Sequence record: SRR31156797_3865
Length of the DNA stretch: 33,713 nt
Direction: 5' to 3' (one strand)
The notes below the pieces were generated by a model. It was not told where the DNA came from. It saw only the letters and a program-made list of their open reading frames with translations, and made no database searches. Below, in pieces: positions 2,286 through 32,109 of the stretch (its first letter is position 1; every line of letters begins with the position of its first letter). Made by a program: the position numbers and the translations under genes.

Positions 2286-2347
2286 TGTGTTTGAATAAAT
2301 AGTTAATAATGTATTGATCACTATTTAAGTGATAAAATAAATGTCAG

Positions 2348-2686
2348 TTACACTATTAATTGTGGAGGAGGTCGTGACCAAAGTTTTGAAATACTGTGGA
2401 TATTCCTTAACGGTGGTGGAGGCCCACATTTAAACGTTGATCTTTTAATACATATCACTTGAGATTTTTTCCCAAACTGATTGTTTGCAGCTGATTTTGT
2501 GATATCATTAAAATGAATTGAGTTGTGTTTGTATAAATCTGCTTCAGATATCTCAGAAAGTATTTCATTAACCTCATCAACGTCCATGTCTTTCATAGTA
2601 ACCGTGCCATAGAAGTAATAGCATAGTGGAGCAGCTATGAGCAACAGATAAGGTAGGTATGACGATAAAAATCCGAAATAGAACAT
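2348..2686 (-). CDS. Small membrane-anchored protein with C-terminal PPPP and RPPP motifs; candidate translation-arrest leader of the receptor
   Basis: ATG start; hydrophobic N-terminus MFYFGFLSSYLPYLLLIAAPLCYYFY; ends CGPPPPLRNIHSISKLWSRPPPQLIV; same strand, 62 nt upstream of the receptor ATG. Confidence 0.7.
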   Translation of the reverse strand: MFYFGFLSSYLPYLLLIAAPLCYYFYGTVTMKDMDVDEVNEILSEISEADLYKHNSIHFNDITKSAANNQFGKKSQVICIKRSTFKCGPPPPLRNIHSISKLWSRPPPQLIV

Positions 2687-2823
2687 AAATGTTAATTATA
2701 TGTCAAAATAAATCATTTCCGATAAACATACCAAAGGAATTACAGCATATTTTGAATTAATGATTTTACCAATAATGAAAAAAAGATGCTAATATCTTAT
2801 AATATAGACTTTTAAACTATTTG

Positions 2824-2831
2824 TAATTTTG
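2824..2831 (+). promoter_or_regulatory. Candidate Bacteroidota -7 promoter box (TAATTTTG) for the respiratory cluster
   Basis: Exact TAnnTTTG match about 137 nt upstream of ATG 2968; the region is AT-rich, so a chance match is possible. Confidence 0.45.
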
Positions 2832-2967
2832 CGTGTTTTTGTAAAAAACAGATTATTATTAATTTAGACTTTATATAAATTATTGTCTTATACGCCTTTA
2901 TTGGTGCGAAAGCTCAAAAGAATCTATATCTTTATTAAAAAAATAACAATACTAATCCACTTAAATT

Positions 2968-3429
2968 ATGAAAAATTACGCCATTATCATTGCTATTTTA
3001 TTTCTTGGACTTTTTTCTTGTCAACAAAACGAAGAAGTAATTAAAGAAAAAGAAGAAAAGGAATGTATAACGAGCCATAAAGATGGCTTATTTGTGCACA
3101 TTAGCTCTAATGAACCCCGAAAAGTATTAATGGGATTATCAATTGCATTAAAAATGCAAGAGGCAAAGGATGTTATTGTATTTGTTGATGCTGAAGCCAT
3201 TAATATAACAACAAAAGATGGTGATGTATATCAAATGGAGGGTTACGAAGGATCATCTGTGGAATTGATGCAAAAGCTATCTCAAGCAGGTGTGAAAATA
3301 ATGGTTTGTCCAATGTGTCTGAAATCATTTGGTAAAACCGAAGCAGACTTATTAGAAGGCACTGAGATTGCTGATAAAGCAAATTTCTTTGGATTTACTA
3401 AAGGTCGTATTCTTACTTTGGACTATTAA
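2968..3429 (+). CDS. DsrE/DsrF-like family lipoprotein
   Basis: Lipobox LFSC; DsrE-like pattern (VIVFVDAEAI ... GVKIMVCPMC ... LLEG ... ILTLDY). Confidence 0.75.
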   Translation: MKNYAIIIAILFLGLFSCQQNEEVIKEKEEKECITSHKDGLFVHISSNEPRKVLMGLSIALKMQEAKDVIVFVDAEAINITTKDGDVYQMEGYEGSSVELMQKLSQAGVKIMVCPMCLKSFGKTEADLLEGTEIADKANFFGFTKGRILTLDY

Positions 3430-3459
3430 AATATTTAATAATAATTAATTAACAATACA

Positions 3460-3792
3460 ATGAGAATTTCATCTATTTTAATGGTATTATTCATGTTTTT
3501 ACTTAGTTGTAACAACACAGATAGTACCAAACAGACTAAAAAACCTGCAGAGTATGTTAAAGTGGAATTGCAGGTTGAAGGTATGACATGTACAGGATGC
3601 GAAAAAACTATCGAAGCTAATGTCAATAAATTAGAAGGTATTGAAAGCATCAAGGCAGACCATGAAGCAGGTACAGCTAAATTATCTTATGATGCTGCCA
3701 ATGTAGATATTGAAGAAGTTAAAAAAGTGATGGCTGATAAAGGTTATAAGGTTACTGAAGTCAAAAAATTAGAATCGGTTTCTAAGGAATAA
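3460..3792 (+). CDS. Heavy-metal-associated (CopZ/MerP-like) domain lipoprotein
   Basis: Lipobox LLSC; HMA motif VEGMTCTGC...IE...LEGI; GY motif near the C-terminus. Confidence 0.9.
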   Translation: MRISSILMVLFMFLLSCNNTDSTKQTKKPAEYVKVELQVEGMTCTGCEKTIEANVNKLEGIESIKADHEAGTAKLSYDAANVDIEEVKKVMADKGYKVTEVKKLESVSKE

Positions 3793-3795
3793 TAT

Positions 3796-4758
3796 ATGGA
3801 AAAAGAAGATCTAACTCCCCAAGAGCAGTCCTCTGAGGAGAAAAGTAAACAATCGCGTAGGGACTTCCTTAAACGACTGGGATTAATTGGAGCAGCCTCG
3901 GCTACTGGTGCTGCTGCGATTTATACTGGTTTACATTATCAGAAATCAAAAGGAGATAAGGTCAAGGTTTTAACTGCCGATAACCGTTTAGTCGAGGTTT
4001 CAAAGAGTGAATTAAAAGAAATGAAACCTACTGATGAATATTATCAGGATCGAGGCAGGGAGGGTATTGCTGGTAAAAGATGGGTAATGGTAATCGATTT
4101 ATCGAAATGCCGGAATGCAAGGCAATGTGTGAATGCTTGTCAAACTGCTCACAGATTGAGACCTTACGAATATCATATCAACACGCTGCAGATGCAGGAG
4201 GATCATTCTACACCTCCTTATCATATGCCAAAACCTTGTCAACATTGTGATAATCCACCTTGTGTTTCTGTTTGTCCGGTTGATGCTACGTTTAAAAGGC
4301 AAGATGGTATTGTATTGATTGATAATGAGCGATGTATTGGTTGTAGGTTCTGTGTAGCTGCATGTCCTTATTCAGCACGAATGGTACACTGGCAAGAGCC
4401 AAAATATGCAAAAGAAGATGCAGACAAAATATATGACGTTGAATTAAATGTTCCACAACAAAAAGGTACCATTTCAAAGTGTTTGTTTAGCGCAGATAGA
4501 TTGAGGAAAGGTGAATTACCTTATTGTGTAACGGCTTGCCCAAATGGTGTATTCTATTTTGGCGACCAGAATGAAGATGCTGTAACAAATGGAACAACTA
4601 AGGAAACTGTACGCTTAAGTGAGTTGCTTAGACAAAATAGTGGTTACCGATTAATGCCTGAGTTAGGAACAGAGCCACGTGTTTATTATTTACCACCAAA
4701 AAACCGCATATTCGATTTTCCGGAAAAAAGTATTCTGGATAAAGATCATCATGCTTAA
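3796..4758 (+). CDS. Tat-exported NrfC/DsrO/PsrB-like polyferredoxin Fe-S subunit
   Basis: Twin-arginine signal SRRDFLK plus hydrophobic segment; RWVMVIDL; motifs CRNARQCVNAC, CQHCDNPPCVSVCP, CIGCRFCVAACPY and KCLFS...CVTACP; LMPELGTEPRVYY tail. Confidence 0.9.
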   Translation: MEKEDLTPQEQSSEEKSKQSRRDFLKRLGLIGAASATGAAAIYTGLHYQKSKGDKVKVLTADNRLVEVSKSELKEMKPTDEYYQDRGREGIAGKRWVMVIDLSKCRNARQCVNACQTAHRLRPYEYHINTLQMQEDHSTPPYHMPKPCQHCDNPPCVSVCPVDATFKRQDGIVLIDNERCIGCRFCVAACPYSARMVHWQEPKYAKEDADKIYDVELNVPQQKGTISKCLFSADRLRKGELPYCVTACPNGVFYFGDQNEDAVTNGTTKETVRLSELLRQNSGYRLMPELGTEPRVYYLPPKNRIFDFPEKSILDKDHHA

Positions 4759-4769
4759 AATTATTGCTT

Positions 4770-6119
4770 ATGTCTTCGAAAACTGAAAATCATTATAATT
4801 CAAAAATAGCAGACAAAGTAGCCAATGATGTGCTTAAGTCGGTAAATATTGGCTGGGGATTTAAAATTTGGTTTGCTGTTCTTGCAATAGCATTAGGTGT
4901 TTGTGTTTATGCCTATTCAATTCAGCTGCGAGAAGGTCTTGGTGTTACGGGCCTTCGTGATTATGTAAGTTGGGGATTGTATATTGCTACTTTTGTATTT
5001 TTTGTTGCCTCTAGTTTAATTGGAATGCTCATTAGTGGTGTTCTTGGGTTGATAGGATATGACTGGATTAAACCAATTGGCCGGATTGCTGAAATAATTG
5101 CTGTTGCTTTTGCGGCGATTGCCGGTTTAGTTATTGTATCTGATATGGGACGCCCGGATAGATTACCTTATGTATTTATGTATGGCCGTTTTCAATCACC
5201 TATTTTATGGGATGTAACAGTTGTGACAACCTATTTTATACTGAGTGGCTTACTATACTATGTTACGCTTATTCCTGATTTAGCCATTGCTAAAGATAAG
5301 CTGGAAGGACGACCAAAACTGCTTCAAAAGGCTTATAAAATAATGTCAATTAAATGGATACATTCTAACCAGCAGTATCATACGCTTTATAGAATTATTC
5401 GAATATTATTAATACTCATTATCCCAACAGCATTTGCCATTCATACGGTTACTTCGTGGCTGTTTGCAGTAAATCCCAGACCAGGTTGGGATAGTACCAT
5501 ATTTGGCCCATATTTCTTGTCTGGTGCTTTTGTGGCAGGAGCTGCAGCAGTTATTATTGCTATGTTTTTCTTTAGGAATAGTTATAAACTGAAAGAATAT
5601 CTCACTAATTCACATTTTGACAAGATTGGGAAATTGCTGGCTTTAGTTTCAATTGTTTACTTATACTTTAATATAAATGAGTTTTTAGTTCCAGGTTACA
5701 AATTGAAAAAGTTTGATTTAATTCACCTTGAAGCTCTTTTTGTCGGTAAACATGCGCTTACTTTTTGGTTTACTCAAATTGCAGGCTTAATTCTCCCAAT
5801 TATTTTATTGATGTTTAAGCCGTTTCGAAAGCCATTACCGCTCACAGTAATATCGGTGTTTATGTTAGTTGGTGCGTTTTTAAAACGGTACTTAATTGTA
5901 GTCCCAACACAGGAGCACCCATATTTACCAATACAACATGTGCCAGAAATATTTCATGTATATTTTCCAACCTGGGAAGAGATAGCTATTACAGGTGGTT
6001 CTTTTGTTCTGGTTATAATGATTATTACGGTATTGTCTAAATTATTTCCAGTTATACCAATATGGGAAGTGGCCCATGATATGGAAAAGAAAGAAAAGCA
6101 AAAAATTGAAAATGAATAA
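4770..6119 (+). CDS. NrfD/DsrP/ActC-family integral membrane quinol-interacting subunit
   Basis: GLGVTGL..VSWGLYIATFVFFV, DMGRPDR, SPILWDV, HTVTSWLF and W.STIFGPYF motifs; about 10 hydrophobic segments; ATG at 4770. Confidence 0.92.
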   Translation: MSSKTENHYNSKIADKVANDVLKSVNIGWGFKIWFAVLAIALGVCVYAYSIQLREGLGVTGLRDYVSWGLYIATFVFFVASSLIGMLISGVLGLIGYDWIKPIGRIAEIIAVAFAAIAGLVIVSDMGRPDRLPYVFMYGRFQSPILWDVTVVTTYFILSGLLYYVTLIPDLAIAKDKLEGRPKLLQKAYKIMSIKWIHSNQQYHTLYRIIRILLILIIPTAFAIHTVTSWLFAVNPRPGWDSTIFGPYFLSGAFVAGAAAVIIAMFFFRNSYKLKEYLTNSHFDKIGKLLALVSIVYLYFNINEFLVPGYKLKKFDLIHLEALFVGKHALTFWFTQIAGLILPIILLMFKPFRKPLPLTVISVFMLVGAFLKRYLIVVPTQEHPYLPIQHVPEIFHVYFPTWEEIAITGGSFVLVIMIITVLSKLFPVIPIWEVAHDMEKKEKQKIENE

Positions 6120-7041
6120 ACTCAGAAATATGAAGATAATATTAACCATATCAATTATAATTCTGGGGTTTTTCTATACCCAGGCGCAAACTGAAGGAGA
6201 ATGGATTGTTCCTGAAGAAGATGCTGCTAAATTAAGTCCTTTCGAATTTACAGAAGACGATGAAAAAGAAGGTCTTGATTTATATTTAAAAAATTGTAAA
6301 TCCTGTCATGGGGACCCTGGTAAGATGAATTACATTAATTTACAACCAGAACCGGGTGATATCACTACAGAGAAAATTCAACGAAACACCGATGGAGCCA
6401 TTTATTATAAACTAAAAGCCGGTCGTGGAGCTATGCCTGCTTTTGAGAATGTTTTGACACCCAATCAAAAATGGCAGGTTGTGGCTTACATCAGAAGTTT
6501 TAATGATGATTATGTGCAACAAGTAGCCGAAGAGATTCCAGAGACCGCTTTTGGTGGTAAAATTGATATCAATTTGGAATACATTCAAGAAGAGGATAAA
6601 CTTCAAGCGAGTTTTATTGGAAATAAAGATGATGCCAAGGAACCAATAGTAGGTGCTGACGTAAATTTATTTGCGAACCGGTATTTTGGAAAACTAGCAT
6701 TGGATGAAGTACGTAAGACAAATGAAGAAGGAAAGGTTACTTTTAATATACCAGCTGATTTGCCTGGCGACTCCAGTGGGTTTGTCAATATAAATATTGC
6801 ATTGGCTAATCAGGAATTATATGGGCAAACTGCAAAAGATACTGCCCTGGCATTGGGAGTTCCTACATATAAGCCCCCATTAAATGAACAGCGGGCAATG
6901 TGGAACGTAAGAATGAAAGCCCCAATTTGGCTTCTAATTTCCTATCATGGTGCATTATTGGCAGTGTTTGGAACTATTTTTTACATTTTACTACAGTTGA
7001 GAAATATATATCTGGAGGGAAAGAAAAATGAAGAGGAGTGA
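6112..7041 (+). CDS. Membrane-anchored monohaem class I cytochrome c with an extra soluble domain (start 6112 or 6130)
   Basis: Signal peptide; single CKSCH; distal Met in GRGAMPAF; W.VVAYIR; C-terminal TM WLLISYHGALLAVFGTIFYILL. Confidence 0.88.
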   Translation: MNKLRNMKIILTISIIILGFFYTQAQTEGEWIVPEEDAAKLSPFEFTEDDEKEGLDLYLKNCKSCHGDPGKMNYINLQPEPGDITTEKIQRNTDGAIYYKLKAGRGAMPAFENVLTPNQKWQVVAYIRSFNDDYVQQVAEEIPETAFGGKIDINLEYIQEEDKLQASFIGNKDDAKEPIVGADVNLFANRYFGKLALDEVRKTNEEGKVTFNIPADLPGDSSGFVNINIALANQELYGQTAKDTALALGVPTYKPPLNEQRAMWNVRMKAPIWLLISYHGALLAVFGTIFYILLQLRNIYLEGKKNEEE

Positions 7042-7098
7042 ACCATTATTGTTAATTGACTGTTAGTGCTTTAATATACTAACTTAAATTCTAGCTTT

Positions 7099-7491
7099 AT
7101 GAACAAACTTACAACGATTGGACGGATTTTATACGCATTACCATTTGCGTTTATGGGTATTAATCATTTTGTTATGATCGATTTCTATGCTGGTATGTTA
7201 ACTTCATTCATGCCTGGAGGTGGTTTTACCATTATTCTTGTAGGAATTCTATTATTAGCAGCAAGTATTAGTATCCTTACAAGAAAATTTGTGCAACTAT
7301 CATCTTACTTATTAGCATCATTGCTATTTCTATTTATTGCAACTATTCATATTCCTCACTTGATTAATCCAGGTGAATTAGATATTCAGTTAGTTGTGTT
7401 TTCAATGGTTAAAGATGTAGCATTAATGGGCGGATCGTTAATGATTGCTGGAGCTTGTCAAAATAGAAAAGCTGAAGAGGTAAAAGAATAA
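7099..7491 (+). CDS. DoxX-family membrane protein
   Basis: GRILYALPF..GINHF, IHIP and KDVALMGGSL motifs; four hydrophobic segments. Confidence 0.8.
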   Translation: MNKLTTIGRILYALPFAFMGINHFVMIDFYAGMLTSFMPGGGFTIILVGILLLAASISILTRKFVQLSSYLLASLLFLFIATIHIPHLINPGELDIQLVVFSMVKDVALMGGSLMIAGACQNRKAEEVKE

Positions 7492-7533
7492 AACTGAAAA
7501 ATTGTCAAAATCAAAAGAATTATAAACTGAACT

Positions 7534-8304
7534 ATGAAATATTTTCTAATACCAGTACTTGTGTTTTTTATGGGAATTTCAATGACCAAAGCACAAGATA
7601 ATAAAGTTAACATTGAAGTAGGTATTATAGAACATTTGGGAGATACTATTCCATTAGATCTCACATTTTATAATACCGAAAATGATACAGTAACTCTTGG
7701 AGAATTGATTACTAAACCTACTGTACTCTCATTTGTATATTTTGATTGCCCGGGTCTTTGCAGTCCTTTACTTGATGGAGTAGCAGACGTTGTTTCGAAA
7801 ACAGATGTGCAGATAGGTGAGGTATACGATGTAATTACAATTAGTTTTAATACGAAAGATACTCCTGAAAAAGCCAAAGAGAAAAAGAAAAATTTTGTGA
7901 CTAAAATTGGTGAAGAAAATCAGGATGCCTGGTATTATTTAACTGGTGAAGAGAAAAATATCAAAGCAATTACTGAGGCTGTTGGTTTTATGTACAAACC
8001 TCAAGGTGTAGACTTTGCACACCCTTCAGCTATTATTGTTGTTAGTCCTCAAGGAAAGATTACAAGGTATCTCTACGGTATTGACTTTTTGCCTTTTGAT
8101 TTAAAAATGGCTGTAACAGAAGCACAAACAGGAATAGAAAGACCAACAATAAATAAAGTTTTACAGTATTGCTTTGCTTATGATCCTAAGAGCCAGGGTT
8201 ATACATTGCAGATTACTAAGGTTTTAGGAACATTTATTATTGCTGTGGCAGTAATTTTATTTTCTATTCTATTATTTAAACGCAGAAAAACAGTAAAAAA
8301 ATAA
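7534..8304 (+). CDS. SCO1/SenC copper chaperone
   Basis: CxxxC motif YFDCPGLC; conserved His in FAHPS; GKITRYLYG; C-terminal TM; directly upstream of oxidase subunit I. Confidence 0.92.
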   Translation: MKYFLIPVLVFFMGISMTKAQDNKVNIEVGIIEHLGDTIPLDLTFYNTENDTVTLGELITKPTVLSFVYFDCPGLCSPLLDGVADVVSKTDVQIGEVYDVITISFNTKDTPEKAKEKKKNFVTKIGEENQDAWYYLTGEEKNIKAITEAVGFMYKPQGVDFAHPSAIIVVSPQGKITRYLYGIDFLPFDLKMAVTEAQTGIERPTINKVLQYCFAYDPKSQGYTLQITKVLGTFIIAVAVILFSILLFKRRKTVKK

Positions 8305-8306
8305 AA

Positions 8307-9929
8307 ATGGAAAGTACTCAAGCAACGAATCACGTAAGTTATCTTCAACATAAGCCATATAAAAGAGGCATATTTAACTGGATACTTTCGACAGATCATA
8401 AAAGAATTGGATTGCTCTATTTGTATTCGATTATGGTGTTCTTTTTAGTGGCAGCGTTTCTTGGTTTGCTGATGCGAATTGAAAAATTTGCCCCCGGAGA
8501 AACCATAATGGATGCCCAAACATATAATGGAGTATTTACAGTACATGGAATCATAATGATATTTATAATAGTGATTCCGGGATTAGCCGCAGTATTTGGG
8601 AACTTCTTTCTTCCCATATTAATTGGAGCAAAAGATGTAGCCTTTCCGAAGCTTAACTTGTTTTCATGGTACATTTATATTGCCGGTGCAATCTTAGCTT
8701 TGGTGAGCCAATTTGCGGCAGGAGGCGCTCCAGACACAGGGTGGACCTTTTATGTTCCATACAGTGCGGATAGCTCTACTAATGTGATTTGGGCTTTGAC
8801 AGCTGCTTTTATTTTGGGTTTTTCATCCATATTAACTGGTCTTAATTTTATCGTAACTATTCATAGGTTGAGAGCCAAAGGAATGACCTGGTTTAAAATG
8901 CCGCTCTTCCCTTGGGCTATATATGCTACTTCATGGATTCAGGTTTTAGCCACACCAATTGTAGGTATTACTTTATTAATGGTAATTGCTGAGCGTGTGC
9001 TAAATATTGGATTCTTTGATCCTGCATTAGGTGGCGACCCTATTCTATTCCAGCATTTGTTCTGGATTTATTCTCACCCGGCTGTTTATATTATGATTTT
9101 GCCGGCCATGGGTGTGGTCACAGAAATATTCCCGACTTTTAGTCAAAAACCGGTATTTGGTTATACTGCCATCGCACTTTCCAGTGTGGCAATTGCTGCT
9201 GTAGGATATTTTGTTTGGGGACACCATATGTTTACCACCGGTATTAGTTACTGGTCAAGGTGGTTTTTCTCCTTCCTGACTTTCATTGTGGCTGTACCAA
9301 GTGCCATTAAAGTATTTAACTGGATATCAACCATGTACGGTGGATCTATTGATTTGAAACCACCGCTTTTATGGGCCATAGGATTTATTTTTCTATTTAT
9401 GATCGGTGGTTTAACAGGACTTGTGTTGGGAGCGTTAGCTACTAATGTGCATACCCACGATACAACTTTTGTGGTAGCACACTTTCATTATATCATATTT
9501 GGAGGAATGGGATTTGCTTTCTTTGCCGGATTGCACTATTGGTTCCCTAAAATGTATGGGAAAATGTATAATATCAAAATGGCCAATATTTCATTTATAA
9601 TAACCTTTATTGGTTTTAATGTTCTTTATTTCCCATTATTTATTATTGGTTTACAAGGTATGCCACGTAGGTATTTTGATTATTTCCCTGAATATCAATA
9701 TGGCCATGTGATTTCAACAGTTGGAGCATTTATATTAATTGCTGGTATTCTAATTATGTTGTATAATTTATTTCATGGTGCACGTAAGGGTGAAAAAGCG
9801 CCTTCAAATCCATGGAAAGGTGTTACGCTTGAGTGGAAAATTGAATCTCCACCAACACTGTTAAATTTTGAAGAAGAACCAGTGATTACTGAGAGACCAT
9901 ATACATTTAAAAAGGAACCAGAAGCTTAA
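8307..9929 (+). CDS. ctaD: Cytochrome c oxidase subunit I, A2-type haem-copper oxygen reductase
   Basis: TDHKRIG, FTVHG, DVAFPKLN, GWTFY, YSHPAVY (A2 YS motif), WGHHMF, AVPSAIKVFNW, VAHFHY and GMPRRY. Confidence 0.97.
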   Translation: MESTQATNHVSYLQHKPYKRGIFNWILSTDHKRIGLLYLYSIMVFFLVAAFLGLLMRIEKFAPGETIMDAQTYNGVFTVHGIIMIFIIVIPGLAAVFGNFFLPILIGAKDVAFPKLNLFSWYIYIAGAILALVSQFAAGGAPDTGWTFYVPYSADSSTNVIWALTAAFILGFSSILTGLNFIVTIHRLRAKGMTWFKMPLFPWAIYATSWIQVLATPIVGITLLMVIAERVLNIGFFDPALGGDPILFQHLFWIYSHPAVYIMILPAMGVVTEIFPTFSQKPVFGYTAIALSSVAIAAVGYFVWGHHMFTTGISYWSRWFFSFLTFIVAVPSAIKVFNWISTMYGGSIDLKPPLLWAIGFIFLFMIGGLTGLVLGALATNVHTHDTTFVVAHFHYIIFGGMGFAFFAGLHYWFPKMYGKMYNIKMANISFIITFIGFNVLYFPLFIIGLQGMPRRYFDYFPEYQYGHVISTVGAFILIAGILIMLYNLFHGARKGEKAPSNPWKGVTLEWKIESPPTLLNFEEEPVITERPYTFKKEPEA

Positions 9930-9940
9930 TATTATTGCAT

Positions 9941-10540
9941 ATGTCACACGAATTTAATGATGATGTAGGTAAGAAAATGGGAATGTGGATTTTTATATTC
10001 ACTGAGTTATTCCTGTTTGGAGGCCTGTTTTTAGTTTACGCTGTATTTCGCGCTGAGTATACAGAAGGATTTCATAAAGCAGCAGCTGGTCTAGATGCAT
10101 TTGTGGGCACACTGAATACTGTCATATTACTAGCCAGTAGTGCTACTGTTGCAATGTCCATTACTGCAGTTCAGAAAGGAAATTATAAGTTAGCCAAACG
10201 ATTTATCATAGCCACAATATTATTTGCTCTTGCGTTTATGGTAAATAAATATTTCGAATGGGGACATAAGTTTGAAATTAAGCTTTATCCAGGGTCAGAT
10301 ATTATGGATCAACTGAGCAATGGTGAAGTTCTGTTTTTTGGACTTTACTATATGATGACCGGACTTCATGCGCTTCACGTTGTGGTGGGTGTTGTATTGC
10401 TAGCAATTAGCTATTTCAAAGTGAAATCAGGTTCAGTACATAGCCAAAAATTCATATTTCTTGAAAATAGTGGTTTATATTGGCACCTTGTTGATTTTAT
10501 TTGGATATTCCTTTTCCCATTAATGTATTTGGTAACTTAA
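9941..10540 (+). CDS. ctaE: Cytochrome c oxidase subunit III
   Basis: GMWIFIFTELFLFGGLF, NTVILLASS, TGLHALHV and GLYWHLVDFIWIFLFPLMY; ATG at 9941. Confidence 0.95.
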   Translation: MSHEFNDDVGKKMGMWIFIFTELFLFGGLFLVYAVFRAEYTEGFHKAAAGLDAFVGTLNTVILLASSATVAMSITAVQKGNYKLAKRFIIATILFALAFMVNKYFEWGHKFEIKLYPGSDIMDQLSNGEVLFFGLYYMMTGLHALHVVVGVVLLAISYFKVKSGSVHSQKFIFLENSGLYWHLVDFIWIFLFPLMYLVT

Positions 10541-10550
10541 TTAGAGAGCT

Positions 10551-10835
10551 ATGGAAGATAAGAAACAACATATTTCCAGTTTTAACTCATTACTAATGGT
10601 ACTAATCGGACTATTTATCATGACTGGTATTTCAGTAATGGTTACGGAAATACACTTTAGTACTTTTTCAGTTGGAGTGGCATTATTATTAGCGTCTATT
10701 AAAGGTTATTTGGTTTTAACTTATTTTATGCACCTTAAATATGACGAGCCCATATTTCGAATAATGGTTTTATTAATACTATTATTATTCGCAATTGTCA
10801 TTGGTATTACATTTATAGATTATTTATTACGCTAA
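10551..10835 (+). CDS. ctaF: Cytochrome c oxidase subunit IV (caa3-type)
   Basis: Three TMs; K..LV..YFMHLKYD motif; located between subunits III and II. Confidence 0.88.
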   Translation: MEDKKQHISSFNSLLMVLIGLFIMTGISVMVTEIHFSTFSVGVALLLASIKGYLVLTYFMHLKYDEPIFRIMVLLILLLFAIVIGITFIDYLLR

Positions 10836-10847
10836 AACCCATTTGAT

Positions 10848-11765
10848 ATGTTTTCAGGAGCATCAAATTTTGTAGAAGGAGTTGACACGGCATTTGCTTT
10901 TATTTTTGGAGTATCAGCCTTCTTTATTATTGCCATTACGGCATTCATGATATATACAGTTATTCGTTTCAAACGTAAGAAAGTTAAAAATGCTAAGCAG
11001 TTCAGAGGTAGTCTGACACTTGAATTAGTATGGACTATAATCCCTACTGCATTAGTATTAATGATGTTTTACTATGGATATATGGGTTTTGCACCTATGC
11101 GTAATGTGCCGGACAATGTAATGGAGGTTGACGCCATTGGTCGCATGTGGGAATGGGAATTTGTATATGATAATGGAAAATCATCCAAAGACCTTGTAAT
11201 ACCTGTGAACAGACCTGTCAAACTTAACCTAATATCCGAAGATGTAAATCACAGTTTGTTTATTCCAGCATTCAGGGTAAAGGAGGATTTGGTTCCGGGA
11301 TATGATAACTATATGTGGTTTACTCCATACTATATTGGTGATTATGAGATACTTTGTACTGAATATTGTGGCATGCTTCATTCGGCCATGACAGCCGAAG
11401 CAAAAGTAGTGGATAGTGCCGAATTTGATAAGTGGTATGCTGACTTATCTGCTCAAAAAGAGGAGGTGAAACCAGAGGGATTTGAAATTGCTAAATCTAA
11501 TGGTTGCTTTGCTTGTCACTCCAGAGATGGCAGTAAGCTTGTAGGTAGCACATTCAAAGGAATTTTTGGAAGTGAGAAAGTTGTAATTACAGATGGTAAG
11601 GAACGAACCATTACAGTGGATGAAGCTTACTTAAAAAATTCTATACTTCACCCGGATGATGATGTTGTAAAAGGCTTTAATAAAGGCTTAATGCAATCAT
11701 ATGAAGGTGTTATATCTGATGAAGATATTGATAAAATTGTAGAATACTTAAAAACAGAGAAGTAA
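10848..11765 (+). CDS. ctaC: Cytochrome c oxidase subunit II with fused C-terminal cytochrome c
   Basis: LELVWTIIP, WEWEF, DVNHSLFIP, CuA motif CTEYCGMLHSAM, and haem motif CFACH. Confidence 0.96.
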   Translation: MFSGASNFVEGVDTAFAFIFGVSAFFIIAITAFMIYTVIRFKRKKVKNAKQFRGSLTLELVWTIIPTALVLMMFYYGYMGFAPMRNVPDNVMEVDAIGRMWEWEFVYDNGKSSKDLVIPVNRPVKLNLISEDVNHSLFIPAFRVKEDLVPGYDNYMWFTPYYIGDYEILCTEYCGMLHSAMTAEAKVVDSAEFDKWYADLSAQKEEVKPEGFEIAKSNGCFACHSRDGSKLVGSTFKGIFGSEKVVITDGKERTITVDEAYLKNSILHPDDDVVKGFNKGLMQSYEGVISDEDIDKIVEYLKTEK

Positions 11766-11790
11766 AAAAATCATTTAACTTTTTAACTAA

Positions 11791-12648
11791 TTGGCAAATA
11801 GGTTGACCATATTATTTAAACTTATTCGCATAAAACTTTCCCTTGCCGTCACTTTATCGGCAACTATTGGGTATGTTTTTGCCGGAGGTGATGATTTTGC
11901 CATTGGGCTAGGCATTGCTTTTGGAGTGATGCTATTATCATCGGCTTCGTCTGTATTGAATCAGATGCAGGAGTCAGATTATGATGCCAAAATGAATAGA
12001 ACAAAAAATCGTCCATTGGCAAAAGAAGTTGTTTCAGAAAAATATGCAGTAAGGTTATTCGCATTACTTTTAATATCAGGGAGCATACTTCTTGCAACTA
12101 TTAGCACATGGTCTGCCATTATTGGTTTAATTACAATTGCAATATATAACCTGGTTTATACACCATTAAAAAGAAAAAGTGGATTGGCCATTTTTCCTGG
12201 TGCTGTTGTTGGAGCATTACCACCCGTATTAGGTTGGGTAGGTCATTCTCCGCATATTTTTGAATTGGGTATAGTGTTACTGGCTGGTTTTATGTTTTTA
12301 TGGCAAGTGCCTCATTTTCTACTACTATCTTATAAATATAAAGATGAATATTTAGAAGCAGGTTTTAAGGTACCCATAGAAAGCTTGAATGAATTGCAAA
12401 CAAAATTAATGCTAGGTTTATGGATAATTACGACATCTCTTATTGCGCTTTTATTTCCGCTCTATGGTCTTGTGAGTAATAGCTATGTTTTAATTGGGAT
12501 ACTAGCTCTTAATGTGTCATTAATTTTAGTTTTCTTCAAACTGGCTTTTGGAAGAACCAGAACGAAAAGCTCATCTAAGTTGCATGTTTACATTAGTTTA
12601 TACATGTTGTTGTTTTTAGTGCTAATTGCTATCGATACATTATTGTAA
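11791..12648 (+). CDS. cyoE: Protohaem IX farnesyltransferase (haem O synthase)
   Basis: D..MNRTKNRPL, YNLVYTPLKR, GA.PP..GW, WQVPHF and Y..AG motifs; TTG start. Confidence 0.92.
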   Translation: MANRLTILFKLIRIKLSLAVTLSATIGYVFAGGDDFAIGLGIAFGVMLLSSASSVLNQMQESDYDAKMNRTKNRPLAKEVVSEKYAVRLFALLLISGSILLATISTWSAIIGLITIAIYNLVYTPLKRKSGLAIFPGAVVGALPPVLGWVGHSPHIFELGIVLLAGFMFLWQVPHFLLLSYKYKDEYLEAGFKVPIESLNELQTKLMLGLWIITTSLIALLFPLYGLVSNSYVLIGILALNVSLILVFFKLAFGRTRTKSSSKLHVYISLYMLLFLVLIAIDTLL

Positions 12649-12708
12649 ATAAATGGTATAGGTAATACTTTAAAATATGGTTGGAATATTGTAATTTGCA
12701 ACCATAAT

Positions 12709-12732
12709 GATTAAGAATTAGATTAAGAATTA
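12709..12732 (+). repeat. Perfect 12-bp tandem duplication GATTAAGAATTA x2 ending at the tatA start
   Basis: Seen directly at 12709-12720 and 12721-12732. Confidence 0.8.
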
Positions 12733-12965
12733 TGATAAATACATTATTGACAGTTGTTTTAGGAATTATTGGTGGCCCGGAAATTATTATCATTGCCATC
12801 ATTATTTTAGTTTTGTTTGGTGGTCGTAAAATTCCTGAACTTATGAAAGGCCTTGGTAAAGGAATGAAGGAATTCAAAGAGGCCAGCAAAGATACTGAGG
12901 ATACAATTAAGAAAGAGCGTGAGGATTTAAACCGCTCTATTAATGGGAATTCAGATAAGAAATAG
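12732..12965 (+). CDS. tatA: Twin-arginine translocase TatA/E
   Basis: GGPEIIIIAIIILVLFGGRKIPELMKGLGKGMKEFK. Confidence 0.95.
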   Translation: MINTLLTVVLGIIGGPEIIIIAIIILVLFGGRKIPELMKGLGKGMKEFKEASKDTEDTIKKEREDLNRSINGNSDKK

Positions 12966-13009
12966 GGTCTGTATCAAATCCCAACTACTCTAAAGTAACA
13001 TAGCATAGA

Positions 13010-13846
13010 ATGCGACGTCTTTTTTCAAGGAAAAAAGTTTCAGAGGACGAGATGAGTTTTTTCGAGCACTTAGAAGTGCTTCGATTTACTATTATTCGAT
13101 CTGTATTAGCTATTATGCTATTTGCAATTGTGGCTTTTGTGTTTAAGGAGTTTATTTTTAATACAATAATTCTTGGACCACAAAAAGCTGATTTCATTAC
13201 AAATTTATTTTTATGCAAACTTGGAAATTTGATTGGTTCAGAAGCCATTTGCATCAATCAAAAAGCCCTGACCATAATCAATATTGAATTGGCCGGGCAG
13301 TTTAAATCTCATTTAGTGATTTCATTAACTGCCGGTTTGGTAATAGGAATGCCTTTTGTGCTAAGGGAAATCTGGGCGTTTGTAAAACCTGCTTTGGGTA
13401 AAAAGGAACGGAGAGGTTACCACTTTTCATTGTTTTTATCATCATTGCTGTTTTTTATCGGTGTTTCATTTGGTTATTATGTATTAAGTCCTATTACAAT
13501 TGATTTTCTTGGAACTTATGTATTAGATGAAGCAATACAAAATACCATTCGATTAGGTTCTTATATTAGGACAATCTCAATGCTATGTTTGGCTACCGGT
13601 ATTGCTTTTGAAATGCCTCTTATTATTTTATTCTTAACTATTAACAGGGTTATTTCAGCTAGATTTTTAATCAAGTATCGCAAGCATGTTGTGATATTCT
13701 TTTTCATTATATCTGCTATTATTACACCACCTGACGTAATTAGCCAATTTTTAGTAGCTATACCGTTGTATTTACTTTACGAAATATGTATACGCATTGC
13801 CAAAAGAATTGGACGCAGGTTGGAATTAAAAGATCAAATGCAATAG
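13010..13846 (+). CDS. tatC: Twin-arginine translocase TatC
   Basis: EMSFFEHLEVLR, EIWAFVKPAL, FEMP and SAIITPPDVISQ..VAIPLYLLYE. Confidence 0.95.
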   Translation: MRRLFSRKKVSEDEMSFFEHLEVLRFTIIRSVLAIMLFAIVAFVFKEFIFNTIILGPQKADFITNLFLCKLGNLIGSEAICINQKALTIINIELAGQFKSHLVISLTAGLVIGMPFVLREIWAFVKPALGKKERRGYHFSLFLSSLLFFIGVSFGYYVLSPITIDFLGTYVLDEAIQNTIRLGSYIRTISMLCLATGIAFEMPLIILFLTINRVISARFLIKYRKHVVIFFFIISAIITPPDVISQFLVAIPLYLLYEICIRIAKRIGRRLELKDQMQ

Positions 13847-13953
13847 AGAATTTTTTTAATCTCAGTGATTTGTTTTTGAATATGTAACCCTGGTTATTAT
13901 CAAAGAATTTCCATTTTTTCATAACTTTAGCATAACTATTTAAATATCATATC

Positions 13954-15887: not shown

Positions 15888-16760
15888 TTATAGGAAAATC
15901 ATTAATATAGCAAAGGTGGCTATTGATAATGCAATTCCAAACTTATTCATAATAGATAGCTTTTCCCTGAAAATAAATAGTGCTGCTATTATCGATGCCA
16001 GTACTACACCAGTATTGTTAAGTGCAATTACAATTGAGTTATTTAGTTCAAGCGCATTTAGAGCATTAATAAGAAAGTACATTGACCCAAAGTTTGCTAA
16101 TCCAATTAATATGCCGCTGAGTAATGTTTTGGGTTTTAGTATGGATAGTTTATTCTTTTGGAAAAAGATAAGTACAATGCTCCAAAATGCTGAAAATCCA
16201 AATGTTAAGAATGAAAATGCCGAACTGTCTATTTCATTCTTAATATAAAAAGTTTGGGAAAACTTAACGATTGAATCAGCCACTCCTAATAGTACAAACA
16301 ACATAGCAGGAAGAAGCATTATAAACAATGATTCAATGGTTTTTCGTCTCTTTTTATAGACTGTTAGAAAAACCGCAATCATTGCCATAAGCAGAAGAAT
16401 CAGTTTTGTACTGGAATAATGGTCTTTATCATCAATCATGATTGAAAAGAACATTGGAAATACAAAAGACATTTTTGAAGCTACAGTGGTTAATGCAATT
16501 CCTGCTTTTCGTGTTGAAAGGCCGATGAGGAAGAATGTAAAAACAAACAAACTGCCCACAAAAGCAGCGGGCCAATACCATTCTAATGGAATCTCAGCTA
16601 CTTTTTCAAATGTTAGTCCGGCATTAAAATATCCGAATCCACTTGCTATAAAATAGTTTATGATAATGGGATGAATTACAGGAATATTATGCTTGTCAGT
16701 TACTTTAAAAATAACAAGAATAACAAAACTAGAGAGTATACTAAGTATTAAGAATAACAT
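15888..16760 (-). CDS. EamA/DMT-family transporter; probable start ATG 16760
   Basis: About 10 TMs; Bacteroidota-type MLFLILSILSS, INY, and FREKLS..N..GI motifs. Confidence 0.85.
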   Translation of the reverse strand: MLFLILSILSSFVILVIFKVTDKHNIPVIHPIIINYFIASGFGYFNAGLTFEKVAEIPLEWYWPAAFVGSLFVFTFFLIGLSTRKAGIALTTVASKMSFVFPMFFSIMIDDKDHYSSTKLILLLMAMIAVFLTVYKKRRKTIESLFIMLLPAMLFVLLGVADSIVKFSQTFYIKNEIDSSAFSFLTFGFSAFWSIVLIFFQKNKLSILKPKTLLSGILIGLANFGSMYFLINALNALELNNSIVIALNNTGVVLASIIAALFIFREKLSIMNKFGIALSIATFAILMIFL

Positions 16761-16778
16761 TGGCACATTTTTGTGCGG

Positions 16779-16786
16779 CAAAGATA
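16779..16786 (-). promoter_or_regulatory. Bacteroidota -7 promoter box TATCTTTG(C) for the DMT gene
   Basis: Exact TAnnTTTG on the minus strand 18 nt upstream of ATG 16760; it overlaps the TTG used as start in the ORF track. Confidence 0.7.
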
Positions 16787-25599: not shown

Positions 25600-26121
25600 A
25601 TGCGTGTACAACGTCTTGCCCCAAAACCTGTGCAAAATGAAATCTCCGCGCAGGTCGATCTCAGTTTACTGGATCCCTTAATCGAAAAATACAAAGGTAA
25701 AAAAGGTAGTATGATTCCGCTGCTACAAGGTACTCAAGATATTTTCGGATATCTGCCACGTACTGCATTCGAAAAAATATCGGCAGAAGCTGGTTTGAAA
25801 TTGAGTGATATGTACGGTGTGGCTACTTTTTATGCCCAATTCAGATTAAAACCAGTGGGAAAACATATTGTAAAAGTTTGCCATGGTACAGCCTGCCATG
25901 TGCAAAATGCCAGTAAAATTACCGATGCTCTTGAAGACACTTTGGGTGTGAAAGACGGTGAAACAACTGAAGATATGTTGTTTACGCTTGAGTCTGTTGC
26001 TTGTTTGGGATGTTGCTCACTAGCTCCGGTTATGATGATTGGTGATGAAACATACGGAAACCTTGATGGTAAAGGTGCTTCAAAAATCGTAAAAGAAATC
26101 CGCCGTAGCGAACAGAACTAG
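25600..26121 (+). CDS. NuoE/HydC-like [2Fe-2S] subunit
   Basis: GVATFYAQF, VCHGTACHV and VACLGCCSLAPVM. Confidence 0.93.
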   Translation: MRVQRLAPKPVQNEISAQVDLSLLDPLIEKYKGKKGSMIPLLQGTQDIFGYLPRTAFEKISAEAGLKLSDMYGVATFYAQFRLKPVGKHIVKVCHGTACHVQNASKITDALEDTLGVKDGETTEDMLFTLESVACLGCCSLAPVMMIGDETYGNLDGKGASKIVKEIRRSEQN

Positions 26122-26162
26122 TTATATCCCAAAATTTTTGTTGAACAAATTCACATCATGAT

Positions 26163-27941
26163 ATGGAAAAATTACAAGTAACAGTAGATATAGGTAGCTC
26201 GGGAATAGCAGCCGGCGCCGGAAAAGTAAATACAAGACTTAAAGAAATAGTAGCACAAGATAATCTTCCGGTTAATTTAAAACAAACCAGTGGAATTGGG
26301 ATGTGTTACAAAGAACCGCTCGTTGAAATTAAAGATGCAGATGGCACTTATTTATATGGTGATATGACGCCAGAGTTGATTGAAGATGTGCTGAATAGCC
26401 ATTTGAAATTAAATGTGCCTTTAGAAAAATATGTGGTGCATACAGCCAACTTTGATACAGATCACAATGCTTTTATGAATGACCAGGTGAGAATAGCACT
26501 GCGTAATTGCGGTGTAATTGATCCTGAAATTATTGAAGAATATGAAGCTCAGGGCGGATATGAAGCCATTAAAAAGTTATTGAAAGATAAGGCTGAGCCC
26601 ACTGACGTAATCCAAACCATCTTAGACTCTGGTATTCGCGGTCGCGGTGGTGGTGGATTTCCCACAGGACTAAAGTGGAAATTTGCATACAACAGTAAAT
26701 CCGAAGAAAAATATGTAATATGTAATGCCGATGAGGGTGATCCCGGAGCATTTATGGATCGTTCATTATTAGAAGGCGATCCACATGCAGTTTTGGAAGG
26801 AATGATTATTGGCGCTTATGCCATGGAAGCAACAGGTGGCATTATTTACTGTCGTGCTGAGTATCCTTTAGCCATTAAGCGTTTAAATATAGCAATTGAG
26901 CAGGCTCATAAGAAGGGATATTTAGGAAAAAACATCTTTGGCATAGAAGGATTCAATTTTGATATTTATGTGAAAGAGGGAGCAGGTGCATTTGTTTGCG
27001 GTGAAGAAACTGCATTGATAGCATCTATTGAGGGTGAGCGAGGTATGCCTCGAAAACGTCCGCCTTTCCCTGCTGTTAGAGGATTGTGGGATAAACCGTC
27101 GAATATCAATAACGTGGAAACGCTAGCTAATATTCCATGGATCATAAGTAATGGAGCTGAAAAGTATGCTTCATATGGAACTGAAAAAAGCAAGGGAACA
27201 AAAGTATTTGCTCTTGCCGGAAAAATTAATCGAGGTGGATTGGTTGAGGTGCCCATGGGAATTTCTTTGGAGGAAGTTATTTTCAAATTAGGAGGCGGTA
27301 TTCCTGATGGTAAAAAGTTAAAAGCAGTACAGCTTGGAGGTCCATCAGGTGGTTGTATTCCTTCGCATTTAATGGATACTAAAGTTGATTATGATAGTGT
27401 TACAGCTACCGGAGCTATTATGGGGTCAGGTGGTTTGGTTGTGATGGACGAAACTACTTGTATGGTGGATGTCGCCAGATTCTTCCTGGATTTTACACGA
27501 AAAGAATCATGTGGAAAGTGTACTTTCTGTCGTATTGGAACTATGCGCATGCTTGAAATTTTGGAGCGAATTACAGAAGGAAAAGGAAAACCAGAGGATA
27601 TTGATAATCTTTTGGAATTGGGTGAAGAAATCAAGAAAAACTCACTTTGTGGTTTGGGACAAACAGCACCAAATCCTGTATTGACTACTATTCGCTATTT
27701 CCGTGATGAATATGAAGCGCATATAAATGACAAAAAATGTCCTTCTCATCATTGTAAAGCATTATTAGACTATGAAATTGATGCTGAGAAATGTACAGGC
27801 TGCACAGTCTGCGCTAAAGCTTGTCCAACTGATGCTATTACTGGTGCTCGTAAAGAAGTGCATGTATTAGATCAGGAGAAATGTATTCGCTGCGGTGAGT
27901 GCTACAGCAAGTGTAATTTTGATGCAATTTTAGTTTCGTAA
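26163..27941 (+). CDS. NuoF/HydB-like FMN/NADH-binding subunit with C-terminal 2x[4Fe-4S] domain
   Basis: GRGGGGFPTG, CNADEGDPGAFMDRS, GAGAFVCGEETAL, GGPSGGC, ESCGKCTFCRIG, LCGLG, CTGCTVCAKACP and CIRCGECYSKC. Confidence 0.95.
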   Translation: MEKLQVTVDIGSSGIAAGAGKVNTRLKEIVAQDNLPVNLKQTSGIGMCYKEPLVEIKDADGTYLYGDMTPELIEDVLNSHLKLNVPLEKYVVHTANFDTDHNAFMNDQVRIALRNCGVIDPEIIEEYEAQGGYEAIKKLLKDKAEPTDVIQTILDSGIRGRGGGGFPTGLKWKFAYNSKSEEKYVICNADEGDPGAFMDRSLLEGDPHAVLEGMIIGAYAMEATGGIIYCRAEYPLAIKRLNIAIEQAHKKGYLGKNIFGIEGFNFDIYVKEGAGAFVCGEETALIASIEGERGMPRKRPPFPAVRGLWDKPSNINNVETLANIPWIISNGAEKYASYGTEKSKGTKVFALAGKINRGGLVEVPMGISLEEVIFKLGGGIPDGKKLKAVQLGGPSGGCIPSHLMDTKVDYDSVTATGAIMGSGGLVVMDETTCMVDVARFFLDFTRKESCGKCTFCRIGTMRMLEILERITEGKGKPEDIDNLLELGEEIKKNSLCGLGQTAPNPVLTTIRYFRDEYEAHINDKKCPSHHCKALLDYEIDAEKCTGCTVCAKACPTDAITGARKEVHVLDQEKCIRCGECYSKCNFDAILVS

Positions 27942-27961
27942 CCCATTGACAAACAAGAATT

Positions 27962-31633: not shown

Positions 31634-31653
31634 TAATTAAAATAAATACTGCC

Positions 31654-32109
31654 ATGGAAAATTTTAAGAACATCGATGAAATATTGGATTTTGCCATTCA
31701 AAGTGAGCAAGATGCCGTTGATTTCTATAGTAAATTAGCCAGGAAAGCAAAAACTAAAGATATGGAAGATATCTTTGAGGACTTTGCTCAGGAAGAAGTG
31801 AAGCATAAAGCACGATTACTAGATATCAAAGAAAAAGGATCATTTGAAGTATCTGATGAAAAAGTAGCTGATCTTCAAATTGCTGATTATACGACTAAAG
31901 TTCAACCAACAGATGATATGAGTTATCAGGATGCTTTGGTGCTTGCAATGCAAAAGGAGAAAGCTGCTTTTAAATTATATTCAAATTTAGCTGAGCGCGC
32001 TCCTAATGATGAAATGAAAGCTTTATTTCAATCACTCGCCATGGAAGAATCAAAACATAAGTTGCGATTCGAATTGGAATATGACGATAATGTGTTGAGA
32101 GAGAACTAA
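31654..32109 (+). CDS. Rubrerythrin-like ferritin-fold di-iron protein (no rubredoxin domain)
   Basis: Two-fold repeat: AIQSE..A..FY...EEVKH and AMQKE..A..LY...EESKH. Confidence 0.88.
   Translation: MENFKNIDEILDFAIQSEQDAVDFYSKLARKAKTKDMEDIFEDFAQEEVKHKARLLDIKEKGSFEVSDEKVADLQIADYTTKVQPTDDMSYQDALVLAMQKEKAAFKLYSNLAERAPNDEMKALFQSLAMEESKHKLRFELEYDDNVLREN

Follow-up and report, generated by a model that had tools for sequence, protein, structure and literature searches.

Three consecutive genes in a 33.7-kb stretch of bacterial DNA (record SRR31156797_3865, 33,713 nucleotides; the whole stretch is called the window below) encode an iron-sulfur (Fe-S) protein, an NrfD-like membrane protein and a monohaem cytochrome c, and stand directly 5' of the genes of a cytochrome c oxidase. 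This trio is conserved as a unit in association with cytochrome c oxidases: its linkage to oxidase genes is far beyond chance, with the same order found again in 52 of the 80 loci related to it. From the relationships of its three proteins and the oxidases that it accompanies, the trio is probably a menaquinol:cytochrome c oxidoreductase that would form one membrane complex, feed the caa3 (A2-type) oxidase and fill the role of the bc1 complex or of alternative complex III (ACIII).

The trio genes, all on the + strand, are tightly linked, as a preliminary description of this DNA had read them. The gap between the Fe-S and NrfD genes is 11 nucleotides (nt) if the latter starts at ATG 4770, and the cytochrome gene overlaps the NrfD gene with a start at 6076 or 6112 and follows it after 10 nt with a start at ATG 6130, which is the likely one. 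The oxidase behind the trio has the features of an A-type caa3 enzyme (a CtaD equivalog match, a CuA motif with a fused cytochrome c domain in CoxII, and YSHP); its CoxI carries YSHPAV, which we take to be a hallmark of A2-type oxidases. It is the CuA motif together with the fused cytochrome c domain of CoxII that identifies the enzyme as caa3, and an oxidase of this composition needs a cytochrome c donor. Pfam scans of every window open reading frame (ORF) of at least 100 amino acids (aa) found no multihaem cytochrome, ActD (PF11821), second NrfD or exported molybdopterin protein, the sole molybdopterin domain of the window being that of a cytoplasmic NuoG/GltD-like fusion (27962-31633). In the cluster itself no ORF has more than one CXXCH, as a pentahaem ActA would, and no molybdenum (Mo) or multihaem catalytic partner is present. 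The earlier statement that the cluster lacks ActA, an ActB1 domain, ActD, ActF and a catalytic Mo subunit is thus borne out.

Conservation of the trio and its linkage to oxidases

Relatives were sought in one genome per GTDB species and occurred in at least 545 genomes. The locus counts given here refer to the best 80 of at least 545 loci, each taken with 10 kb on either side and analysed by tblastn with the window proteins followed by ORF extraction; a trio is called complete when the Fe-S, NrfD and cytochrome genes are all present, and informative when at least 3 kb of downstream DNA is available. All 80 loci are labelled as Bacteroidales in the broad sense, including Salinivirgaceae, Marinilabiliaceae, Prolixibacteraceae, Marinifilaceae, Rikenellaceae, Paludibacter and Lentimicrobiaceae, and they match at 55-93% identity. 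Among the 120 protein clusters listed, the closest named NrfD relative is that of Salinivirga cyanobacteriivorans (84% identity).

The trio is complete in 67 of the 80 loci, and 62 of the 64 informative complete trios are immediately followed, on their own strand, by a haem-copper oxidase cluster. In 52 loci the trio is followed, on that strand, by SCO-CoxI-III-IV-II-CyoE; in 9 loci it is followed by a cbb3 cluster, and in one (L066) by a cbb3 cluster with caa3 genes behind it. Neither L070 nor L071 has an oxidase near its complete trio, L071 carrying napAGHBD instead, and for the remaining three trios the downstream DNA is too short to judge. The cbb3 genes were identified by Pfam and NCBIfam models in L059 and L066 (CcoI, CcoNO, CcoP, CcoG and CcoH). 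At L066 (9000-21326) the order is trio, CcoI-CcoNO(+c)-CcoP, SCO-CoxI-CoxIII, placing two oxidase families behind one trio. The linkage to cox genes that had been noted in the window therefore extends across the related loci, with either caa3 or cbb3 as the neighbour, and the opposite pattern raised in the preliminary description, a trio usually unlinked from oxidases and paired with a Mo or multihaem reductase, was not seen: nap genes accompany one trio. Among the 67 complete trios, covered by tblastn with the window genes and in some loci by inspection of the ORFs, no Mo or multihaem partner was found other than napA 3' of the L071 trio.

The presence of the trio beside two unrelated oxidase families points to reduced cytochrome c as its product, which we consider the strongest argument for the proposed function. 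The incomplete loci lead to the same inference. Six of these 13 loci are cut or masked at the position of the gene, and seven truly have no Fe-S gene (L010, L014, L015, L021, L027, L048 and L061); all seven also have no oxidase cluster, and this joint loss again argues for cytochrome c reduction. The NrfD proteins of these seven loci are 60-64% identical to that of the window and come mostly from Prolixibacteraceae or Tangfeifania. A divergently oriented gene for a 974-aa YdiJ-like FAD/Fe-S dehydrogenase lies upstream in L010, L014, L021 and probably L027. The seven loci could represent a second, differently partnered copy of the module or a decaying one.

Broken genes were seen in three loci from metagenome-assembled genomes: an internal stop in the Fe-S gene of L001 (1962-2924), damage to both the Fe-S and cytochrome genes of L030 (9335-12621), and a frameshift in the C-terminus of the cytochrome of L004 (11331-12194). 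These may be assembly errors or decay. A reading of the trio as a remnant or pseudogene was ruled out by its conservation across the 80 loci.

The three subunits and their relatives

The NrfD-like protein, the presumed menaquinol site, matches PF03916 with 114 bits (gathering cut-off 25.8), has 10 hydropathy peaks that correspond to about 10 helices, and carries no Cys or His cofactor motif. Its relatives of solved structure are the ActC chains of ACIII (6lod_C with E = 5e-48, 6f0k_C, 8k9e_C and 6btm_C), all aligned at full length with E-values of 5e-48 to 2e-37; in the same search of the PDB, ActF was matched weakly and PsrC not at E ≤ 0.01. The bit scores against the PDB ActC chains are 132-167, as compared to 452-539 for a canonical ActC representative (P0250), and the best NCBIfam model is DsrP, at 121 bits (cut-off 350, E = 8e-35). 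In a quick maximum-likelihood tree, unrooted and built from 120 rows without named references, the Bacteroidales NrfD proteins form one clade (100% SH-aLRT) nested among proteins that often have a C-terminal extension of 150-300 aa, and three ActC-ActD fusions (P0171, P0212 and P0221) fall with P0250 in the opposite half. Judged by these comparisons, the subunit is ActC-like and lies outside the canonical ActC clade.

We compared individual residues by reading the alignment by eye against the lists given in the available part of Sousa et al. (PMC5928083). The ActC quinol-pocket residues Trp82, Ile86, Phe89 and Asp169 appear to be retained as W70, I74, F77 and D150, and of the 21 channel residues proposed for ActC, about 15 are either unchanged or conservatively substituted. 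Since many proposed proton-channel residues are retained, proton translocation by this subunit is possible. Ser245 of ActC, proposed in the same portion of that paper to communicate with ActD and ActF, is replaced in this mapping by Ala225, which is invariant.

Among NCBIfam models the Fe-S protein scores best with DsrO (186 bits, cut-off 200), followed by TtrB, QrcC and NrfC. Its best PDB match is PsrB (2vpw_B, 1.2e-30), with ArrB also found; the match to ActB (6f0k_B, 8.1e-18) covers the B2 part alone (residues 796-1022). By these scores the protein is closer to DsrO and PsrB than to ActB2. Of the 66 full-length homologues, 60 have a TAT (twin-arginine translocation) motif of the form RR.F[LIVM], and all 66 share one identical Cys pattern. 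Groups II and III of this pattern are full Cys motifs. In group I (C-x5-C-x3-C) the second Cys is gone and an Asn-Ala pair is invariant, and in group IV (C-x2-S...C-x3-CP) a Ser takes the place of the second Cys.

In the NarH/PsrB ligand scheme, as we assume it to apply here, groups I and IV bind the pair of clusters most distant from the membrane, and the one closest to it is bound by group III. Group III of the window protein is CIGCRFCVAACP, a full motif in 66/66 homologues, and the aligned place in R. marinus ActB reads CIGTRYC. The pattern is thus reversed relative to ActB, in which group III has three Cys; here it is groups I and IV that have three. According to the available part of PMC5928083, group III of ActB holds a membrane-proximal [3Fe-4S] cluster of +140 mV that passes electrons on to ActA. 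Distal three-Cys sites in the trio protein would suit a wire in which the potential climbs on the way to a cytochrome c acceptor.

The cytochrome begins with a helix that serves as signal or anchor, which is followed by a class I cytochrome domain (about residues 60-145), an immunoglobulin (Ig)-like domain (about 160-260), an amphipathic helix and a C-terminal transmembrane (TM) helix (about 284-320). An AlphaFold model (mean pLDDT 86.7, pTM 0.52) contains, in order, a helix at the N-terminus, the class I domain, beta-sandwich strands at 162-258, several short helices and a long C-terminal helix. A single CXXCH was found in 73 of 74 homologues, and among 27 cytochrome sequences neither the CxSCH motif nor the M120-P121 pair varies. 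The monohaem assignment of the preliminary description is upheld by the one CXXCH, whereas the conserved Ig-like domain and the C-terminal TM helix had been overlooked in it. The top Foldseek match in the PDB is ActE of the Roseiflexus ACIII (6lod_E, E = 9.9e-6), with 6f0k_E and 8k9e_E also matched, and there is a weak sequence match to 6btm_E (E = 4.5e-4).

The C-terminal half of the cytochrome leads to a different group of proteins. Residues 159-317 align with the C-terminal extension of haem-less NrfD-like proteins of 620-700 aa (hhalign 99.3%, E = 2.6e-20). These proteins, part of a wider haem-less NrfD-Ig-TM set of 620-765 aa (P0124, P0127, P0128, P0130, P0134 and others, from metagenomic representatives), have weak Big_1 or Big_3_5 Pfam matches, and CXXCH is absent from all 150 haem-less NrfD-like representatives. 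In the unrooted tree they are the nearest outgroups of the Bacteroidales NrfD clade. They thus share the Ig-like/TM module with the trio cytochrome and differ from it in having no cytochrome c domain and in bearing the module on NrfD. In the ESM Atlas all matches of the C-terminal half are to unnamed Bacteroidota clusters, and the cluster records of 10 representatives bear generic names, with no taxonomy for the haem-less relatives. From these alignments, the Ig-like/TM module is one that belongs to a wider NrfD lineage, the Bacteroidales form placing a cytochrome domain in front of it.

In three of the 80 loci (L007, L008 and L016) the NrfD and cytochrome genes are fused in frame into one of 756-760 aa, with NrfD followed by a charged linker, a hydrophobic segment and the cytochrome domain; this order is compatible with a cytoplasmic C-terminus of NrfD. 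Proteins of about 760 aa make up 9 of the 120 listed protein clusters, seven having precomputed NrfD and cytochrome c Pfam domains and two having been rescanned. An apparent NrfD-Fe-S fusion (P0138/P0282) was discarded, as an internal TAT-like signal suggests two genes read as one.

Taken together, the trio has a membrane subunit, a cytochrome and a location that recall ACIII (6f0k, 6btm, 6lod and 8k9e), and a stand-alone Fe-S protein that recalls DsrJOP, NrfCD and PsrBC, as far as sequence comparison can tell. With ACIII it shares a 10-helix NrfD-family subunit whose best solved relatives are ActC, a TAT-exported periplasmic module predicted to hold four Fe-S clusters, a monohaem cytochrome whose best fold match is ActE, and a location directly 5' of a caa3 oxidase. 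It differs in the Act subunits that are absent from the window, in the size of the Fe-S protein (320 aa, as compared to about 950-1040 aa for ActB with its fused B1 and B2), and in the extra Ig-like domain and C-terminal anchor of the cytochrome. With no ActA haems there is also no sideways exit for electrons; the Fe-S wire would have to be used, and in the absence of ActA from the cluster it is the sole visible route to the haem. DsrJOP likewise combines a membrane-anchored c-type cytochrome, a TAT-exported Fe-S protein and a 10-helix NrfD-family protein. However, the DsrO and DsrP scores (186 and 121 bits) stay under their cut-offs (200 and 350), the cytochrome has one His/Met haem instead of the three haems of DsrJ, no DsrM or DsrK is encoded in the window, and the linkage is to O2 reductases and not to sulfite reduction. 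NrfCD and PsrBC of the CISM type share the four-cluster Fe-S protein and the cofactor-less NrfD membrane anchor; unlike them, the trio has about 10 helices instead of 8, its own tethered cytochrome c, and three-Cys motifs at the two clusters that would face a catalytic subunit.

On this evidence the trio is best placed, by sequence, among the NrfD-family quinol:acceptor oxidoreductases, as a variant that is akin to ACIII and did not arise from it by simple deletion. The stripped-down oxidoreductase put forward in the preliminary description, if read as ACIII with parts taken away, is supported in part: the ActC-like NrfD and the ActE-like cytochrome agree with it, and the non-canonical ActC, the Fe-S protein nearer to DsrO/PsrB and the reversed Cys pattern speak against it. 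The available part of the survey of NrfD-like subunits by Calisto & Pereira (PMC8076601) contains no such complex. No description of the trio was found in the full-text literature searched, a search outside which lie subscription papers (e.g. the 2010-2016 ACIII surveys) and supplements.

Proposed electron path and alternative readings

We propose that menaquinol would bind to the 10-helix NrfD subunit on its periplasmic side, near W70, I74, F77 and D150, and that its electrons would first go to the cluster of the periplasmic Fe-S subunit that lies nearest the membrane and has a full set of Cys ligands. They would then travel along a wire of four clusters to the two distal three-Cys clusters, which may be [3Fe-4S] or otherwise raised in potential, and from these to the His/Met haem in the tethered, ActE-like cytochrome, positioned by the Ig-like domain and the C-terminal helix. 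This cytochrome would pass them on to the cytochrome c domain of CoxII, or to cbb3 in other lineages. What the analysis shows directly is the gene content, its conservation, the link with oxidases, the gene fusions and the kinship of the proteins in sequence and fold; complex formation, the direction of electron flow, the cluster types and proton pumping are all points that we infer. A complex prediction with the Fe-S protein (86-312), NrfD (18-447) and the cytochrome (38-318) scored 0.65, and since a control with a replaced NrfD still scored 0.51, the prediction is counted on neither side.

Several observations weigh against this proposal. Four of the nine ActC quinol-pocket residues are altered by our hand mapping to the available lists of PMC5928083 (His139 to Asp127, Asp253 to Leu233, Pro136 to Val and Val250 to Thr). 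Three-Cys sites can hold a [4Fe-4S] cluster with the help of another ligand, and Ser232 is invariant; the distal placement of these sites, moreover, rests on the NarH/PsrB scheme. The absence of act and bc1 genes applies to the 33.7-kb window. In L071 (3269-11674) the trio is followed by napA, napG, napH, a gene for a NapB-like dihaem protein and napD, with no oxidase, and in L070 a complete trio has nothing relevant nearby. The seven loci that retain NrfD, with or without the cytochrome, in the absence of an Fe-S gene indicate that the parts can persist apart. Finally, the literature searched held no biochemistry for any member of the trio.

The reach of the negative result also underlies one alternative, in which the trio is an auxiliary or condition-specific input to the oxidase, ACIII or bc1 encoded elsewhere in the genome is the main link, and the missing Act subunits may join the trio. 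The act and bc1 genes are absent from 33.7 kb alone, ActC/ActF occur in 76% of Bacteroidetes species according to the available part of Calisto & Pereira (PMC8076601), and the NrfD copies that stand alone in Prolixibacteraceae loci are evidence that sets occur which are paralogous or incomplete. We nevertheless regard this alternative as unlikely, because the trio NrfD clade is separate from canonical ActC, the ActC residue proposed to communicate with ActD and ActF has become the invariant Ala225 (available part of PMC5928083), the dedicated cytochrome and the gene fusions argue for a self-contained unit, and the trio heads an oxidase operon in 62 of 64 informative loci.

The arrangement at L071 is a hint that periplasmic nitrate reductase may receive electrons from the cytochrome in some lineages. 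Extended to all lineages, this would make the trio an all-purpose periplasmic menaquinol dehydrogenase comparable to NrfCD, NapGH and DsrJOP, feeding nitrate, nitrite and N2O reductases as well as oxidases, and the best model of the Fe-S protein (DsrO, 186 bits), the DsrP match of NrfD (E = 8e-35), the napAGHBD genes directly after the L071 trio, the L070 trio standing alone and the service to two different oxidase families would all agree with it. Such a dehydrogenase, which departs from the proposed menaquinol:cytochrome c oxidoreductase in the breadth of acceptors alone, seems to us quite unlikely, since 62 of 64 informative trios lie beside haem-copper oxidases as against one beside nap, and that nap cluster has its own quinol dehydrogenase, NapGH. 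A very improbable option is a reversed, Qrc-like flow from a periplasmic cytochrome c or other donor to menaquinone, or a non-respiratory role in oxidase biogenesis: NrfD-family modules act in both directions in known systems such as QrcABCD (available part of PMC10564751) and the copper chaperones HMA and SCO mark some neighbours as assembly factors, but donation to the oxidase is what one would expect of a high-potential His/Met monohaem cytochrome encoded beside oxidases, inspection by tblastn found no linked periplasmic dehydrogenase or hydrogenase in the 80 loci, and the QrcC and QrcD models score far under their cut-offs.

Returning to the trio as a menaquinol:cytochrome c link, a broader version of the proposal is put forward more tentatively, as a serious possibility somewhat short of probable. 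Bacteroidales outside the aerobic flavobacteria may possess a so far undescribed complex III substitute of three to four subunits, in which a lone ActC-like subunit would oxidise menaquinol, a full Fe-S wire would end in remodelled three-Cys outer clusters of higher potential, and an ActE-like cytochrome, mounted on an Ig-like/TM module inherited from the haem-less NrfD-Ig family, would feed caa3 or cbb3.

Fermentation is the way of life ascribed to many Bacteroidales from sediments, mats, digesters and groundwater, yet at least several hundred species genomes have cytochrome c oxidases with their own putative quinol-oxidising module in front. If the trio is indeed the link between menaquinol and cytochrome c, it would account for O2 respiration in such Bacteroidales, a role masked by automatic labels such as "molybdopterin oxidoreductase membrane subunit" and "HybB-like". 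The trio would also be a natural minimal relative of ACIII, with a single NrfD subunit and without a haem wire, ActD or ActF. Such a minimal version, if the proposal is correct, would reveal the parts of ACIII that quinol:cytochrome c activity, and perhaps proton pumping, requires, and it would open two long-standing questions to testing: the purpose of the [4Fe-4S] wire of ACIII and the ability of a single ActC-like subunit to pump protons.

Gene content of the window

The trio and the oxidase genes belong to a single tight run of genes on the + strand (2968-12648), from a DsrE-like protein through haem o synthase (Table 1).

Table 1. Features of the oxidase gene run and its 3' neighbour in the window
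Feature	Position	Strand	Remarks
DsrE/DsrF-like protein	2968-3429	+	Lipoprotein-type signal; first gene of the run
HMA (CopZ-like) lipoprotein	3460..3792	+	PF00403 E 1.3e-16; CopZ-type NCBIfam models under cut-off
Fe-S protein, 320 aa	3796..4758	+	TAT motif SRRDFLK; Fer4_11 E 1.6e-22
NrfD-like membrane protein, 451 aa	4764 (TTG) or 4770 (ATG)..6119	+	PF03916 E 1.4e-32
Monohaem cytochrome c, 321 aa	6076, 6112 or 6130..7041	+	Single CXXCH; PF13442 E 4.1e-12
Ig-like + C-terminal TM module (cytochrome residues 159-317)	6550..7026	+	hhalign
Small membrane protein, 130 aa	7099..7491	+	About 4 TM helices
SCO1/SenC copper chaperone with C-terminal TM helix	7534..8304	+	PF02630 E 9.9e-9
CoxI, A-type, YSHPAV motif	8307..9929	+	TIGR02891 672 bits (cut-off 670.75); PF00115 E 1.3e-150
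CoxIII	9935..10540	+	PF00510 E 1.3e-21
CoxIV, caa3-type	10551..10835	+	TIGR02229 58.5 bits (cut-off 37.25)
CoxII, CuA motif and C-terminal cytochrome c domain (CFACH)	10848..11765	+	TIGR02866 161 bits (cut-off 147.7); PF00034 residues 210-303
Haem o synthase (CyoE/CtaB)	11791..12648	+	TIGR01473 182 bits (below cut-off 210); PF01040 E 7.4e-42
TatC	13010-13846		3' of the oxidase operon

The genes that follow the trio, given in the preliminary description as DoxX-SCO-coxI-III-IV-II-cyoE, are present at the expected coordinates, and only the DoxX label gives way. The 130-aa protein concerned has no Pfam or NCBIfam match at E ≤ 0.01; it scores 9.8 bits with Pfam DoxX (gathering cut-off 23.6, E = 1.6) and reaches E = 0.062 with MauE. 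DoxX was matched at E ≤ 0.1 by 9 of 29 homologues and MauE was matched by 10, every score lying below gathering, and the family is at best DoxX/MauE-like by sequence. Homologues occur in 41 of the 80 loci, and the protein could act as an additional subunit or in assembly.

The HMA lipoprotein, whose gene ends 3 nt 5' of the Fe-S gene and which has a homologue 5' of the trio in 31 of the 80 loci, is probably a periplasmic copper chaperone for oxidase assembly, and SCO was found in 56 loci. A homologue of the DsrE/DsrF-like protein was found in just the 2 closest loci. The Fe-S subunit requires TAT export, and the TatC gene lies just 3' of the oxidase operon; TatC is beside the operon in 3 of the 80 loci, namely on the same strand in L001 and L002, the two closest relatives, and on the opposite strand in L063. 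A scan of 2300-13900 for promoters and terminators, with a sigma-70 consensus that is unsuited to Bacteroidota, gave counts close to those of shuffled sequences (56 as compared to 54.2, and 6 as compared to 6.5).

Two ORFs on the - strand, of 112 aa (2348-2686) and of 297 aa with several TM helices (15888-16781), have no Pfam match at E ≤ 1e-5. Further downstream, the region 25600-32109 encodes NuoE-like and NuoF-like proteins, a 1223-aa fusion of 2Fe-2S, GltD-like flavoprotein and NuoG/molybdopterin-like parts, and then a rubrerythrin. By its domains this region, which shares the window with an O2 reductase, looks like a cytoplasmic NAD(P)H-linked module of the formate dehydrogenase or hydrogenase type, typical of a fermentative or anaerobic lifestyle.

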